A stretch of 50,244 nt of DNA from a virus (lineage: Duplodnaviria; Caudoviricetes), in the IMG/VR virus record IMGVR_UViG_3300005663_000064, positions 1 to 50,244 of that record; one strand, 5' to 3'. The notes under the pieces were generated by a model. The model worked only from the letters and a program-made list of their open reading frames with translations, had not been told where the DNA came from and made no database searches. The translations under genes and the position numbers were made by a program. Positions 25,141 through 48,036 of this stretch are shown here, piece by piece. Within the stretch, counting starts at the first letter, position 1. Each line of letters opens with the position of its first letter.

Positions 25141-25665
25141 TCACGGTTGTCTTTCGATAATATTTAATCTTGCAAATTCGCCATGATACTTTAACGCCCC
25201 TATATTGTAAGCAATTGCCGCCTCAATTTCTTTTTCAAAACAACCGAGTGATATTGATTTAAAGTTAACACAAATCAATGCTCGCCATTTTTTTAAACTC
25301 TTATGCCAAGAAACACCTTTATATTTAGATGTTCCGCGATTAGAAATCATGTTCATGTGGTTTTGAGAGTTGCTACAAAGTCTTAAATTGCTAATATTAT
25401 TATCTGATTTGACTTCGTTTCTGTGATCTACTTGTTTGTCTGGCGGTGCGTTAACGACCAGTCGTGCAACCTTTTTCTTGTGGCGCTTTCCGCCCGTAAA
25501 TAGATCGATGTTCAAATATCCTTTTTGATTTAAATATGGTTTTAGTTTAACTAGTTCACCGCTTGGGCGTCCGTTATACTTCTTGTTGCTCCAGACTTCA
25601 CCTAAATCATTAACAAAATAGTTCGGGAAATCTGGTATCGGTCTCAATTCTGCTTCTTTGTTCAC
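25141..25665 (-). CDS. NUMOD4-HNH-AP2 homing endonuclease
   Basis: PNYFVNDLGEVWS, VDHRNEVKSDNNISNLR and SKYKGVSW..W.A.I..LG.F..AA.AYN; start moved to GTG 25665 because the upstream part is promoter/leader. Confidence 0.9.
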   Translation of the reverse strand: MNKEAELRPIPDFPNYFVNDLGEVWSNKKYNGRPSGELVKLKPYLNQKGYLNIDLFTGGKRHKKKVARLVVNAPPDKQVDHRNEVKSDNNISNLRLCSNSQNHMNMISNRGTSKYKGVSWHKSLKKWRALICVNFKSISLGCFEKEIEAAIAYNIGALKYHGEFARLNIIERQP

Positions 25666-25676
25666 GTTGTCACCAT

Positions 25677-25793
25677 AAAAAAATCCCATCGAACACGGAA
25701 GGTCAGCAAAACCATTACGCCCAATGGGATTCATAAAACACTGTTTGCTTGTTTCCGTGCTTATAATATAATCGTTCATATCCATAAAATCAA
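25677..25793 (-). promoter_or_regulatory. Sigma-70 promoter plus leader/terminator of the HNH-AP2 cassette
   Basis: TTGATT-17-TATATT (25793-25765); stem 25682-25731 followed by a U run on the - strand. Confidence 0.65.
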
Positions 25794-34177: not shown

Positions 34178-34477
34178 TTAATTGCCTAAATTCTTTCTCA
34201 ACCTCCTGGCAGCACCCCAAAGTGTTGATCTATTCTCTTTGTCTTTCACTATTAGATGAACTTTCTCATGACAATCGCCACATAACGGTAATAGATCGTG
34301 TAGATTTTCACGTTTTAGACGATTATACGACTTGTGATGTATCTGTAACGGAACATCGGGATTCTCACAGCAGTAACAGTGTCCTTTATACAATTTGCTT
34401 CTATAATATCGCTTTTTAACAGCTTTCCATTCGTCAGATCGCAGGTAAGCTCGATAGTCCTTGTAGTCGATTCTCAT
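34178..34477 (-). CDS. Small HNH endonuclease
   Basis: YLRSDEW..CYCC..IHHKSY..L..E..DLLPLC..CH. Confidence 0.85.
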   Translation of the reverse strand: MRIDYKDYRAYLRSDEWKAVKKRYYRSKLYKGHCYCCENPDVPLQIHHKSYNRLKRENLHDLLPLCGDCHEKVHLIVKDKENRSTLWGAARRLRKNLGN

Positions 34478-34884: not shown

Positions 34885-35322
34885 TTAAAGACCTTTTTTC
34901 TTTCTAAGCTTACTATTAATCTCATCCATTTTACTGAGATTGAATGGTTTATTTAAGTGGTTATTTTTATTTATACTTCTATTGGTTGGTGTGTTTAATT
35001 TATCTTGAAGTCTTGTCAATTCTTTCTTCTTTGGAGCGTAGGGGGTTAACTCTTCTGGTTTGCTGTGATTGTGATATATATTATGGCATCCTCCGCAGAG
35101 GACAATTAAATCTTCTGATATAATTTCTTCATAAAGACGGTCGTAATTTCTGTGGTGAACTTCGAGCCCCCACCTTATTCCGCATAATACACAGGATCTA
35201 TACATCCGCAAAGTCAATTTTCTCACGTTCTTCCAGTGGGGAGTTCTTAGATAGTGGCGATAAGACTCTCTGTGCTGCCTCTTCTTACTTCTTCTCTTTG
35301 ATCTGTATGGATGATTCGCCAT
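34885..35322 (-). CDS. Small HNH endonuclease
   Basis: YLRTPHW..CVLC..VHHRNY..L.EE..DLIVLC..CH. Confidence 0.85.
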   Translation of the reverse strand: MANHPYRSKRRSKKRQHRESYRHYLRTPHWKNVRKLTLRMYRSCVLCGIRWGLEVHHRNYDRLYEEIISEDLIVLCGGCHNIYHNHSKPEELTPYAPKKKELTRLQDKLNTPTNRSINKNNHLNKPFNLSKMDEINSKLRKKKGL

Positions 35323-36272: not shown

Positions 36273-36461
36273 TTATGGAATTGACACTAACGCATGAGGC
36301 GGAACCAGCTCAAATTCACCACGTTGGGTTTGGACTATAGCACATGGTTGACCGAACTCGCTAGCAGATACAAAACCAACGATGTAGCCGAACTCCCAAG
36401 CATGGACTGTTGTAGGTTGGGGAACGGAGTTGTTCATTTTCATTTTTACTTTGATCTTCAT
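36273..36461 (-). CDS. Hypothetical protein
   Basis: RBS GAGGAGG. Confidence 0.55.
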   Translation of the reverse strand: MKIKVKMKMNNSVPQPTTVHAWEFGYIVGFVSASEFGQPCAIVQTQRGEFELVPPHALVSIP

Positions 36462-36721
36462 ATCTCCTCCTCATCATCTTTGCCAACACAATAAGAGCAT
36501 GGCGGATTAATATGACACGAACAACCATCGTATGTCCCGCCATCATAATCGGAGATGGCATCGTCTAATCGCTTGCTTTGTCCTGGTGCAAAGTGACGGT
36601 CGTAGCTCTTCCTCTTCTCATCCATATTTTTCCATATCTTTTCTCTGAGCTTACGAGTGCACTCTCCGCAGTAGCCATAGTCAGATGCGTCAGGGGTGCA
36701 ACCACACGATAGTTTAGCCAT
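36458..36721 (-). CDS. Cys-rich hypothetical protein
   Basis: GCSCHINPPCSYCV motif; start moved to ATG 36721 behind AGGAG. Confidence 0.6.
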   Translation of the reverse strand: MAKLSCGCTPDASDYGYCGECTRKLREKIWKNMDEKRKSYDRHFAPGQSKRLDDAISDYDGGTYDGCSCHINPPCSYCVGKDDEEEI

Positions 36722-36932
36722 TAGCCTTCTCCTTTTTATCCACCGTTCGCTGAACCTGTTGCATAGCCCAATCGAGTCTATCTTCAGGCATATTGTCAAC
36801 CACTTTATCAATGTGTAAATCTAAATTGTTATGCGAATACATTCGTTTGAATAGTAGCTTTTCCGCTGTTGTGCATTGCGATAGACCCTTCTTCAAGCTA
36901 TCTCGCGCAAACTTCTGTAATTGGTTATTCAT
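36714..36932 (-). CDS. Hypothetical protein
   Basis: FKRMYSH..LDWAM.QV; RBS GAGGAG. Confidence 0.65.
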   Translation of the reverse strand: MNNQLQKFARDSLKKGLSQCTTAEKLLFKRMYSHNNLDLHIDKVVDNMPEDRLDWAMQQVQRTVDKKEKANG

Positions 36933-36952
36933 CTCTCCTCCTCATATAAAAT

Positions 36953-37123
36953 ATAGAGTTGTGTGCTATTACGCCAAAGAGGCGAGGACAGTCTGCCAAC
37001 ACACGTTGATTGACACCGTTCCGACATTGGCTGTGTCTCAAGCCAGAGGTCGCCTAGCTTATTTAAGGCTGCCCACCTCACTCTTTAAATGGTGGCTGCT
37101 TCTAAGCCTACATCCAACTCTAT
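36953..37123 (-). ncRNA. 23S rRNA H43/H44 (uL11-binding GTPase centre) mimic RNA with 104-nt insert
   Basis: Minus strand GGATGTAGGCTTAGAAGCAGCCACCATTTAAAGAGTG..GCGTAATAGCACAC, closed by ATAGAGTTG/CAACTCTAT. Confidence 0.8.
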
Positions 37124-37140
37124 GCTTTGTTAATATAGTA

Positions 37141-37343
37141 AGGCGGCCGGCAGTTGGCCTGCAACCCACTCGGTCAGGATGCCACTCCACAACCGCCTAT
37201 AAACAGCGACCCAGACACTAGATCATATTTCCTCCAATAACAACCAGCCGGAGAGCGCAATAGGCGTGCGTGCAACGCCTCGTTTTACGTGGACGGTTAT
37301 GGCTATATGTTAAAGCAGAGCCACACCATAAGATGTCTGCTTT
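37141..37343 (-). ncRNA. Three small hairpin-closed RNA units upstream of the rRNA mimic
   Basis: Closing stems at 37141-37198, 37246-37304 and 37312-37343, separated by spacers. Confidence 0.4.
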
Positions 37344-37372
37344 TATCACCTCGCGCTCTCAGACTGCCCAAT

Positions 37373-37539
37373 AAAAAACCCACACGCGGTAAATTCTGGG
37401 AAAGAACAGGCTCAACAGAAGCCCTGCATGTGGGTAATGTGGTTATGTTAATATTGTCCTGTTGATTTGTTCGTTCTTCCCAAAGATTCATTTGATTCAT
37501 TATATATCTATAATCTAACCTTCTAAACACTAAAGTCAA
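37373..37539 (-). promoter_or_regulatory. Sigma-70 promoter plus leader/terminator upstream of the RNA array
   Basis: TTGACT-16-TAGATT; ACCCACA/TGTGGGT stem plus U6. Confidence 0.6.
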
Positions 37540-37744
37540 GCTTTATTTTACATTACCTTAACAAATATACGATCATGGCTCCAAGCATAAACGCTTTGAT
37601 TTATCTCTTTTATTTCGCCCAGCTCGATCAATCTGTCAACATAAGCCATCATGTTCCAGACATCACTTTGTACATCTTTTAATGCGAAAAACATTTTAAA
37701 TGCCCCAGCGTCTTTTAGTAACCGATTTGCTTTGGCGCGTACTT

Positions 37745-37975
37745 TTAAAAGGTTTCGCTTTCCATTAACTGTCTTTTATCTTCTTCCAATTCTTGCAGCC
37801 TCAACTCAAAGCCATTAACCAAGGTGCTAATTTCCCGCACGGAATGTTCCAAACTATCCAGCTTGCCACGGAGCGAAGAAATCTCGTGACTGTCTGCTTT
37901 ACCATCTACTTTCCTCCTTATTTCTGAAATTTCTGATTGTAGCTGTCCTGAATCTGTACACGGATGAAGCAACAT
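37745..37975 (-). CDS. Coiled-coil hypothetical protein
   Basis: RBS AGGAG; heptad pattern. Confidence 0.6.
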   Translation of the reverse strand: MLLHPCTDSGQLQSEISEIRRKVDGKADSHEISSLRGKLDSLEHSVREISTLVNGFELRLQELEEDKRQLMESETF

Positions 37976-45884: not shown

Positions 45885-46248
45885 AGTTAAACTATGCGAC
45901 ATGGCTCTGAAGGCCACGAGTTTTGAGATCGATGATTTACTCGGCAAGGTAGGTGAGGTTGTTGAACGTGTAGCTGATGGTAACTGGATCGTTTCATTTG
46001 GACATCATCGTGTCTATGCTCTCCCTGAACATTATCTCGGCGAGACTGTGCTTAAGATAGTTTATGACGATACTCATGGCACACCGCCTGAACCTGAAGT
46101 TGTTAAGAAGTCTAATGCGAAGAAAGTAGCTACTGCGAAACGTAAAGAAACTATGAAGAAGAAAGTTGCGGCAGAGAAGGTTGCTGTGGAATCTAAAGTT
46201 ACTCTACCTGTAAAAAAGAGGACTGATGGAAGTCTTAACCTCAAGTAG
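45877..46248 (+). CDS. Hypothetical protein with K/A-rich tail
   Basis: ATG 45877 behind AGGAG. Confidence 0.6.
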   Translation: MIKVKLCDMALKATSFEIDDLLGKVGEVVERVADGNWIVSFGHHRVYALPEHYLGETVLKIVYDDTHGTPPEPEVVKKSNAKKVATAKRKETMKKKVAAEKVAVESKVTLPVKKRTDGSLNLK

Positions 46249-47269
46249 AACCCATACGAAGCATGATGATATGGTGAAGATGTATCAAGATCCTGCATAC
46301 TTTGATATAAACATCTTGCCTAATCATTTCTGGAAACCTCTTGCTGAAGTTCATTTCAGAATGCAGAGGGCTATCCATTCCACTGTTCCGTTCGTGAACA
46401 TTATCGTCCCTCGTGAATTTGGCAAGACTACCGTAGTTAATTGTGGGTTCCCACTTTACAATATCTGCTTCGGTCTTGAGAGATTTATTGTTATGTGTTC
46501 TGAGACTGCTACCGAGGCGGAGTCCAATCTCCGGACTGTTAAGTATGAACTCGTTACGAATGATCGGATTAAGCATTATTGGGGTGATCTTAAAGTTGAT
46601 CGGGTTAAGGATGAGTTTGGAAAGTGGAATGAAAAATACGCTAAGACGAGTACTGGGATCTACTTGGCGGCGAAGGGTGCCGGATCGCAGATTCGAGGCA
46701 TTAAGGCGATAAACGTCCGGCCTACATTGATCATAGTCGATGATCCGCAGGGAATCCGCACTATTCTTACCGAGCAGACTCTTAACAAGATGGATACTTG
46801 GCTTGAGAATGAAGTTATATTCGCCAGAGCGACTAAGTATCAACGTAAGGTTGGCGGTAAGACTAAGACTTTTCATGGCAAGGTTAGATTACTCGGGACG
46901 GTTGTTCATCATGAGTGTTTGGTTAATCGTAAGCGTAAGGATAGTCGATTTACGACTGTGTTTATGCAAGCGATTGAGCATGATAAGGATGGTAATCGAA
47001 TCAGTTTATGGCCTGAGATGTTCTCTCTTAACTCTCTCGATAAACAGCGGGCTGAGTATAAGGCTAATGGTAAAGAGAAAGTGTGGATGCAGGAGAAGAT
47101 GAATGTGCCGATGTCGGAGGAGGATAAACCGTTTGATAAGAATAGGATTAAGTACTGGGATAATGTTGTTGATGGCGGTAATTCCTATTTCGATATCTAC
47201 CATGGCGTTCCCGTTCTAACGTTTAGTAACCCATGTGTAGGATTAACTGAAGGGATGGATAGTGTCTGA
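46226..47269 (+). CDS. terL: Terminase large subunit, ATPase domain
   Basis: PREFGKTT Walker A, QIRG..RPTLIIVDDPQ Walker B, LGTVVH and WPE..QEKMN.P. Confidence 0.9.
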   Translation: MEVLTSSRTHTKHDDMVKMYQDPAYFDINILPNHFWKPLAEVHFRMQRAIHSTVPFVNIIVPREFGKTTVVNCGFPLYNICFGLERFIVMCSETATEAESNLRTVKYELVTNDRIKHYWGDLKVDRVKDEFGKWNEKYAKTSTGIYLAAKGAGSQIRGIKAINVRPTLIIVDDPQGIRTILTEQTLNKMDTWLENEVIFARATKYQRKVGGKTKTFHGKVRLLGTVVHHECLVNRKRKDSRFTTVFMQAIEHDKDGNRISLWPEMFSLNSLDKQRAEYKANGKEKVWMQEKMNVPMSEEDKPFDKNRIKYWDNVVDGGNSYFDIYHGVPVLTFSNPCVGLTEGMDSV

Positions 47270-47438
47270 TAAAATAGTTCAAGGCGGAAAGAAAGGTCGG
47301 AAGATCGGAAGGAATAAAGTTGAGTGTAAGCGTTATCGTGATGAAGATAGGCGTGAGAAGAATAAACAGAGACGTGCTGAGTTTAGAAAACTTAGACTAG
47401 AAAAAGGTAAGTTGAAAAAGGAACTTAAAAGTGTATAG
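47262..47438 (+). CDS. Very basic 58-aa ORF between the TerL halves (not in the ORF track)
   Basis: GTG start; MSDKIVQGGKKGRKIGRNKVECKRYR..KSV. Confidence 0.6.
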   Translation: MSDKIVQGGKKGRKIGRNKVECKRYRDEDRREKNKQRRAEFRKLRLEKGKLKKELKSV

Positions 47439-48036
47439 ACTTCCCGTATATACCTTCACCGCTATGGATATTGCAACCACTGATGCGAAGATTCCGGATT
47501 ATACGGTTATTATAACCGGAGCTACTGACTATAGAAATAACTTGATGGTGCTTGAGATTTGGAAACAGAAAGGGAGCAATCCGATTAATCGTATGAAAGA
47601 AGTGACGAGACAGGTTTTGCATTATCAATCAAGAGTGCTTGGCATAGAGGAAAATAGGGCTGAGGACTTTATCGACATGTACGAATGGCTTCTTGATCGT
47701 GGTGAGTGGGCTCAGGAATTTGGCGAGATAAGCAGAAGTATCGTTAATAGAATTCAGAGACTTCCGCATTACACACAATCCAAGAGGGATAGGATTATTG
47801 ATAGATTGCAGCCAATTATCAATGCTCACTCTCTATGGCTAACTAAGGATTTATCCTGGCTTGCCGACAATCTTGATATTTATCCACAGATTGAATATGA
47901 TGATGATATTGATGCTCTTGAGATGTTACGATATATCGCCCGACCGCCTTCTGAAGATTTGAATATTAGCGGTTACGAGGAGGAAAATTCCTTAACTGTG
48001 CTTGAGTATAACCCAATAACGATGTGTTGGAATTAG
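47431..48036 (+). CDS. terL: Terminase large subunit, RNase H-like nuclease domain
   Basis: AMDIA..DYTVI, GIEEN, K.DRI..LQP and YDDDIDAL; own AAGGA RBS. Confidence 0.85.
   Translation: MYRLPVYTFTAMDIATTDAKIPDYTVIITGATDYRNNLMVLEIWKQKGSNPINRMKEVTRQVLHYQSRVLGIEENRAEDFIDMYEWLLDRGEWAQEFGEISRSIVNRIQRLPHYTQSKRDRIIDRLQPIINAHSLWLTKDLSWLADNLDIYPQIEYDDDIDALEMLRYIARPPSEDLNISGYEEENSLTVLEYNPITMCWN

Follow-up and report, generated by a model that had tools for sequence, protein, structure and literature searches.

The stretch of DNA analysed here, called the window below, is the whole of a 50,244-base virus record that is rated complete. The plus strand carries the structural genes, the minus strand a long series of small orphan genes. 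Within this minus-strand array sits an element of 171 bases (37123-36953), which we predict to be the gene of a non-coding RNA of this 50-kb marine-sediment phage. The parts of the element and the features around it are collected in Table 1. The promoter matches upstream are a possible start of the element transcript. Of the two terminator-like hairpins that follow them, the first lies at 37424-37408 and the second is formed by CCCA...UGGG followed by U6, as read by eye. Between these hairpins and the element there is a stretch of 250 nt (37124-37375, minus strand) that is GC-richer (about 50% GC), lacks a convincing ORF, has a fold z-score of -1.83 and is without relatives among the phage records searched; this stretch might represent a 5' extension of the element or a second RNA. 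The product of the first downstream ORF has no PHROG match.

Elsewhere in the window the gene for the large terminase subunit is split into two parts on the plus strand (46226-47269 and 47431-48036), which correspond to the N- and C-terminal parts of PHROG 38. An ORF of 58 aa (47262-47438) overlaps the junction and fills the gap, and the Rfam scan of the whole window detected no intron family. Three HNH endonuclease-like genes are found on the minus strand in the small-gene arm (25141-25785, 34178-34477 and 34885-35322), two of them less than 3 kb from the element. A tblastn search with the portal protein gave no match among 50,697 phage records.

Table 1. Parts of the element and neighbouring features, in window positions; numbers such as 1055 refer to 23S rRNA
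Feature	Position	Strand	Remarks
Candidate sigma-70-like promoter matches	37499..37539	-	10/12 and 9/12; about 375 nt upstream of P1
Two terminator-like hairpins with U runs	37366..37424	-	between promoter matches and element
P1, 5' strand, AUAGAGUUG	37115..37123	-	replaces the top of H42; last G is the G1055 equivalent
H43 copy (1057-1081), with the 1065-1073 loop including A1067	37089..37113	-	sequence and covarying pairs
Junction UUAAA (1082-1086)	37084..37088	-	tertiary pair 1082:1086 covaries
GAGU, lower 5' strand of H44 (1087-1090)	37080..37083	-	A1088 is the tertiary partner of U1060
Inserted domain, 101 nt, between 1090 and 1091	36979..37079	-	base helix GAGG.../...CCUC closes a multi-branch predicted fold
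Linker UUUG, from insert to upper H44	36975..36978	-	conserved in members chosen by the 5' block
Upper H44 hairpin GCGUAAUAGC (1091-1100, with A1095), then A1101, C1102 and A1103	36962..36974	-	
P1, 3' strand, CAACUCUAU	36953..36961	-	first C is the C1104 equivalent; covariation
First downstream ORF, 72 aa, orphan	36714..36932	-	ribosome-binding site 10 nt and ATG 20 nt after P1

Both ends of the element resemble 23S rRNA. We read directly from the minus strand a block of 37 nt, GGAUGUAGGCUUAGAAGCAGCCACCAUUUAAAGAGUG (37115-37079), and one of 14 nt, GCGUAAUAGCACAC (36974-36961), and compared them with the genuine 23S stretch contained in the record of Paenibacillus phage Pd_22F (L003); the 23S rRNA of Salmonella LT2 (L311) served as a second reference. 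For the 37-mer, there was one window match with two mismatches (35/37), which becomes 36/37 if C/U is allowed at 1078, and 100 shuffles gave no match. For the 14-mer, there was one window match with one mismatch (13/14), and one of 100 shuffles also matched. The two rRNA-like blocks reported in the preliminary description are therefore present where it had placed them and match 23S rRNA at this level. The base helix of the insert begins straight after U1090, and H44 is turned into a three-way junction whose 3' strand is continuous. A blastn search revealed no sequence relative of the window's insert in the sets searched. The fold energy of the element is unremarkable (z -1.56), and so the case for a structured RNA rests on covariation. 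An alternative pairing, AAAGAG/CUCUUU, is possible in the window and, by eye, is absent from most of the relatives read.

The element is not part of an rRNA gene. With Rfam 15 no match was obtained in the whole window at gathering scores, and none between 36600 and 37500 at E values up to 10; the models included LSU rRNA, the comparison that the preliminary description had recommended, as well as ribosomal-protein leaders, introns, ROOL, GOLLD and tRNA-like RNAs. In 20 relatives Rfam detected only the neighbouring tRNAs and chance matches. A continuation into the neighbouring rRNA helices H41 and H45 is absent: unlike the genuine rRNA of L003, the blocks are flanked by the private stem and by phage ORFs. 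Contigs from three DNA runs of one marine-sediment study cover positions 36400-37900. Two of them, of 50,137 and 29,429 nt, show no difference from the window over this interval and may represent the source sample itself; a second sample from that study yielded overlapping pieces which together cover the element, its depth of about 160-280x being similar to that of the flanks. A search for sequencing runs listed no RNA run containing this phage. Short contigs of other organisms share a core of 32 nt and then diverge. The identity of the long contigs and the depth in the second sample argue against a chimera with host rDNA, an outcome of read mapping that would have refuted the preliminary reading.

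Other blastn matches of the core were to 23S sequences in phage-labelled records, several of them annotated as 23S rRNA. They comprise positions 83.4-85 kb of Pd_22F (the only one of these records for which the DNA was read), Salmonella genome contigs, rRNA reference records, and records of 1.6-7 kb named as Listeria, Staphylococcus, Escherichia, Klebsiella, Dickeya or Salmonella phages. The 23S-bearing phage-labelled records probably reflect host contamination or mislabelling.

Homologues of the element do exist in phages. A blastn search of phage records, as proposed at the outset, located the core in Cronobacter phage GAP32 and Pectobacterium phage CBB, in both cases in intergenic DNA without annotation, and in Pseudomonas phage pf16, likewise in unannotated DNA, between tRNA-Asn and tRNA-Pro. 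These three named phages are a minimum, as blastn detects only the conserved block of about 35 nt. A scan of IMG/VR with an 18-base H43 pattern yielded 61 loci. Loci L011-L070, examined by script, gave 61 matches (L022 has two), with the 3' block found for all except L034; L014 and L059 were dropped for a weak 3' block and no closing stem, leaving 58 matches with both features. The H43 pattern fixes 18 bases, and a second scan used the 3' block alone. It returned at least 119 loci with at least 120 matches; 85 of the 120 matches listed have an H43-like block upstream with at most six mismatches in 19, and the remaining ones listed look like chance occurrences in coding DNA. Combined, the two scans gave at least 120 unique elements, which span about 102-419 nt from closing stem to closing stem.

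We aligned 17 short members, the window among them, with a structure written by hand (seed A1) and built from this seed the covariance model R1. Applied to whole records of cultured phages, R1 detected one copy each in GAP32, CBB and pf16. In the loci collected it identified 105 copies in 100 sources, namely the window (one copy), 98 IMG/VR loci and one genome-contig locus; 99 of the 100 sources are viral loci. The window matches at 36951-37125 over the full model length (116.3 bits, E 3e-31), which is partly by construction as it is a seed member, so that independent support comes from the 88 non-seed matches. It carries the full family set: P1, H43, the junction, GAGU, the insert helix, UUU(G/A), upper H44 and A1101. 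The phage contigs bearing the family have lengths between a few kb and over 500 kb. In three viral contigs (L022, L236 and L218) the element occurs twice within a tRNA array, the two copies being separated by 75 nt to 3.1 kb. A compact member of about 70 nt without the H44 insert (L014:587-658, plus strand) lies beside a tRNA-like sequence in a 42-kb viral contig; it scores 37 bits with R1, and its H44 resembles the variant of some DPANN archaeal rRNAs. A scan of genome contigs with an A1061 pattern returned almost only genuine archaeal and CPR 23S rRNAs, with L175 the only phage-type-looking element that it found in a cellular genome record.

Covariation provides the main evidence for the proposed structure. 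Of the pair cells in the 17-sequence seed, 93.4% contain paired bases; sliding the partners lowers this share to 34-51% and the covariation score from 0.742 to 0.195 or less. The structure for this comparison was derived from the same 17 sequences. Double changes were observed in all nine P1 pairs, in two pairs of lower H43 and in all five pairs of the insert base helix. The alignment of 105 copies gives 91.0% paired cells, compared with 31-58% after sliding, and double changes occur at 22 of the 24 pairs; this alignment was fitted to R1 and leans towards the structure, a bias that the hand alignment does not share. All nine P1 pairs also show double compensatory changes among the 105 sequences, and the H43 pairs 1057/1081 and 1058/1080 covary in both sets. 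In the insert base helix the first three pairs covary and are formed in at least 88 of the 98 rows that have letters; the fourth and fifth pairs are weaker. These proportions of paired cells, together with the 22 double-changed pairs, indicate that the structure is under selection. Both stems singled out in the preliminary description, the 9-bp closing stem and the stem at the base of the insert, are thus real, and its central claim of a selected structured RNA that rebuilds H43 and H44 behind a new closing stem, rather than stray or chimeric rDNA, is upheld by covariation, relatives and contig coverage.

Within H44, G1087-C1102 is G-C in 98 of 105 copies and U1090-A1101 is U-A in 100 of 105; in upper H44, 1092-1099 is G-C in 97/105 and 1091-1100 is C-G in 99/105, and rare double changes keep both pairs. 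Reading 1090/1101 as U-A, as first suggested from the window, fits the family, given that genuine rRNAs show C-G there and that members chosen by their 5' block have A1101 almost throughout (51/52). The tertiary contacts of the rRNA are likewise represented. Positions 1082:1086 are U:A in 41, C:G in 29 and A:U in 11 of the 105 copies (81/105), and of 115 genuine archaeal and CPR rRNAs, 112 have one of these three pairs; wherever letters are present at U1060/A1088 (101 rows), they read U/A without exception. The rRNA tertiary fold of the GTPase-associated centre (GAC) seems to be kept in the family, as far as can be judged from its sequences.

Counting conservation among members found through the very positions counted would be circular, and each block was scored in members picked by the opposite block alone. 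In the 79 unique members chosen by the 3' block (all counts of 79 are among the matches listed), the H43 loop positions are conserved in 74-79 members, except for A1067 (67/79), G1068 (62/79) and A1070 (68/79); U1060, G1063, C1072 and C1075 are found in 79/79. A1067 is replaced by G in 10/79 and A1070 by G in 11/79. In the 52 members chosen by the 5' block, G1093, U1094 and A1098 are invariant (52/52) and A1095 is present in 49; the position 1101, an A in this family, is mostly U in real rRNAs. The linker behind the insert has U in 50, 51 and 47 of these 52 members at its first three positions, followed by G in 40 or A in 12. The variable domain always lies between 1090 and 1091 and is followed by this conserved UUU(G/A) linker. 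A second insertion of 5-62 nt, by eye after A1077, is present in the 3' half of H43 in 10 of 105 members and absent from the window.

Position 1061 deserves separate comment, as the preliminary description took the A found there in the window for an adaptive, stabilising change. This does not hold for the family. Of the 79 unique 3'-block-chosen members (among the matches listed), 51 have U at this position, 20 have A, 6 have G and 2 have C, so that A is the state of a minority. A1061 is moreover the usual base in many of the archaeal and CPR 23S rRNAs among our sequences, and the accessible part of PMC6239185 describes it as normal in many archaeal 23S rRNAs. According to the same part of that source, A1061 stabilizes the fold only with Mg2+ and destabilizes it without.

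Taken together, the comparative evidence establishes, at the level of predicted structure, that a private stem closes the two ends of the element into a self-contained replica of the GAC, with H43, H44 and the junction between them. On the same comparative grounds, this replica retains the nucleotides and tertiary pairs by which the GAC fold of the real ribosome is defined. A lineage-specific domain is grafted into it between 1090 and 1091.

The genomic surroundings of the family bear on how such an RNA might be made. A tRNA gene lies within 100 nt of the element in 33 of 79 loci, often only 0-10 nt away, within 500 nt in 40/79, and within the available flank in 51/79. Near the elements, 323 of 323 tRNA or tmRNA genes are on the element strand and none on the opposite one; from this tally we infer co-transcription and end processing of the tRNA type. 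The tRNA-array context points to a processed, stable RNA, and the element of the window would be the gene for such an RNA of about 171 nt. ARAGORN found no tRNA or tmRNA gene in the window; as this phage is without tRNA genes, the link to tRNA arrays holds by family and not by this locus. No phage protein family is linked to the elements: among 712 ORFs from 55 loci and the window, the largest cluster occurs in 5 of 56 neighbourhoods. The lack of a travelling phage protein points to a host partner.

The inserts include several lineage-specific modules, and the window's insert contains none of those described here. A module CACCCC-(3-bp covarying stem, 4-base loop)-UAAGG, abbreviated CACCCC..GGUAAGG, is present in 21 of the 120 unique elements listed (for example L201, L231, L066 and L035), always equally far from the 3' end of the insert. 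A second insert type, GUGCGAAAUG ... AUGAUGUGC, is present in about 8-12 elements. In three loci (L230:3990-4373, L254:3990-4372 and L031:213-632, all minus strand) a hairpin loop reads like the sarcin-ricin loop, GUACGNNAGGA. These three belong to a divergent lineage with the largest inserts, about 300-350 nt, and a mean column identity of 67%; the match covers 11-13 bases and the flanking stems covary. Three of the 120 inserts (among the matches listed) carry this hairpin, against a shuffle mean of 0.11, with one of 2000 shuffles reaching three, and across the viral and phage loci and the window, three of six distinct matches to the pattern fall inside these inserts. The hairpin is a possible lead, not a result, as the pattern was picked after it had been sighted and its three carriers form one lineage. 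Apart from this site, blastn-short of all inserts against full 23S rRNA gave weak scattered matches; similarities to the H69/H70 region are probably due to chance.

A GAC replica suggests a role connected with ribosomal protein uL11. The accessible text of PMC6239185 indicates that uL11 binding needs the tertiary fold and that the folded domain alone suffices; since the domain is kept in the element, we infer that host uL11 would bind the replica in the infected cell and that the complex would act off the ribosome. The contacts of the uL11 C-terminal domain given in the available part of PMC1802607 (1058-1060, 1062-1065, 1075-1083 and 1088) are conserved in the family, and the main insert avoids them, its site at 1090/1091 being outside the nucleotides listed there. 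The second H43 insertion falls inside the contact range listed in that part of the source, and uL11 binding may thus not be universal in the family.

Away from the ribosome, the replica would compete with the GTPase centres of ribosomes for something that docks there, the likeliest target being a factor of the host's stress response or defence that is harmful to translation. The decoy RNA might then be part of the same translation-protecting kit as the phage tRNA arrays in which most of its relatives reside. Our first choice is that the element imitates the uL11 site in free-standing form and serves as such a translation-protecting decoy, because the family resides in tRNA arrays and no phage partner accompanies it; we regard this as a quite possible but tentative reading. 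The retention of the exposed loop bases A1067, A1095 and A1098 speaks for it. Replacement of A1067 or A1070 by G in some of the members listed suggests that strict mimicry of the factor-contacting face is relaxed in these. A decoy would also need a high copy number, as ribosomal uL11 sites are very abundant. To our knowledge, no bacterial defence toxin directed at the GAC has been described.

Several other readings draw on the same data. The GAC fold could be a compact, nuclease-resistant holder that is processed like a tRNA, the variable insert being the part that works, for example as a lineage-specific binding site or an antisense RNA. The wide range of element lengths and the existence of lineage insert modules, including the sarcin-ricin-like hairpin, agree with this. 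However, a pure holder need not keep A1067, A1095 and A1098 unpaired and exposed, at least one member (L014) has no insert at all, and no insert module is common to the whole family, so that we consider a scaffold with cargo rather unlikely. A different role for the replica, and the main idea of the preliminary description, would be to soak up free uL11 and perhaps the uL10-bL12 stalk, so that new or repaired ribosomes would lack them, RelA activation would drop and the stringent response would be damped; RelA activation depends on uL11. The covariation and tertiary pairs support such sequestration in the same way as they support the decoy. Against it, P1, the stand-in for the top of H42, is free to vary in sequence, and this region, we assume, would carry much of any uL10 site; the infection cycle is also presumably short compared with ribosome turnover. 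A sponge of this kind appears unlikely to us.

A leader acting in cis on the translation or stability of the ORF at 36932-36714, after the manner of ribosomal-protein leaders, might be suspected from the ribosome-binding site just behind P1 and from the lack of a terminator between P1 and the ORF, but it is very unlikely: the elements of the relatives precede tRNAs or unrelated ORFs with no shared downstream protein family, and no Rfam leader family matches. Still more improbable is a mobile insertion, in which the insert would be an intron or intervening sequence and the flanks a captured rRNA-like exon. The insertion site is indeed fixed, and some DPANN archaeal 23S genes have insertions in the same region (L115, L181 and L185, DPANN-type archaeal genome contigs with genuine 23S genes interrupted inside or next to H44 of the GAC). 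Yet Rfam found no intron match at E up to 10 in the window region or up to 1 in 20 relatives, some whole elements are only about 100 nt long, leaving inserts of about 50 nt, and the flanks end exactly at the covarying private stem. Finally, the sharing of the 32-nt core by short contigs of other organisms might hint that host rDNA was joined to the phage during assembly, or that an rDNA fragment is decaying in its genome. The long identical contigs, the even depth in the second sample and about a hundred covarying relatives in other phages refute this as far as sequence data reach, and we give it hardly any credence.

Returning to the decoy, a broader and more doubtful proposal can be formulated. 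Portable replicas of the docking site for translation factors could constitute a new class of anti-defence or host-takeover RNA: loaded with uL11, they would lure ribosome-directed toxins, stress factors or GTPases off the ribosomes engaged in phage protein synthesis, would be deployed alongside tRNA arrays, and in one lineage would add a sarcin-ricin-like hairpin. If it holds, this would be, as far as the literature searched goes, the first stand-alone viral RNA imitating a functional centre of the large subunit. It could explain part of what phage tRNA arrays do and could point to host factors or defences acting at the GTPase centre. For RNA folding, of which this domain is a classic model, the family is also a source of natural sequence variants. 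Binding, deletion and pull-down experiments are directly feasible, as three of its phages are in culture and have tractable hosts.

A full-text literature search found no description of a phage RNA family copying the GAC. The main text of two catalogues of structured RNAs (PMC10690425 and PMC8040213) mentions no rRNA likeness in the parts consulted, the supplementary motif lists being outside this look-up; the family may sit nameless in those lists. In the accessible text of the CBB paper, the terms rRNA, ribosomal RNA and intergenic are all absent. What is new here are the conservation counts by opposite blocks, the 1082:1086 covariation, the strand tally of the tRNAs, the absence of linked proteins, the pf16 locus and the sarcin-ricin-like lineage.

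Among known systems, the bacterial and phage Y RNAs, to judge from the available part of PMC4201824, are also non-coding RNAs with a module that copies an RNA of translation. There the copied module is a tRNA and the partner is Ro60, whereas the phage element copies an rRNA domain and has no linked partner gene. Species 1 and 2 RNAs of T4 (rnaC and rnaD) are small stable RNAs on the tRNA strand of a phage tRNA array, which is the usual setting of the present family; they have no sequence or structural relation to it and their folds differ. Accordingly, R1 detected nothing in T4 at E up to 1, and it gave no match in the PA5oct genome, which has four ncRNAs defined by RNA-seq (best E 0.2).

The leaders of ribosomal-protein operons imitate the protein-binding sites of rRNA. 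Leaders such as the L10 leader of Rfam are likewise RNAs outside the ribosome that imitate such a site, as is predicted here for the element. They are cis-regulatory parts of cellular mRNAs with a loose structural likeness to rRNA, whereas the phage element is stand-alone and nearly identical to it, without an adjacent ribosomal-protein gene and without an Rfam match.

The closest relation is to the GAC of 23S rRNA itself, the domain of about 58 nt (top of H42, H43 and H44; E. coli 1051-1108) to which uL11 and thiostrepton bind and where the translation GTPases engage the ribosome. In contrast to it, the phage element stands alone outside any 23S rRNA, with H42 replaced by a private stem, A in place of U1101 in nearly all members chosen by the 5' block, H44 split at 1090/1091 by a variable domain with its UUU(G/A) linker, and a second insert in H43 in about a tenth of the members. 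The two agree nearly completely in their loops and junction; they share the helices and the tertiary pairs U1060/A1088 and the covarying 1082:1086, and a closing helix occupies the position of H42.
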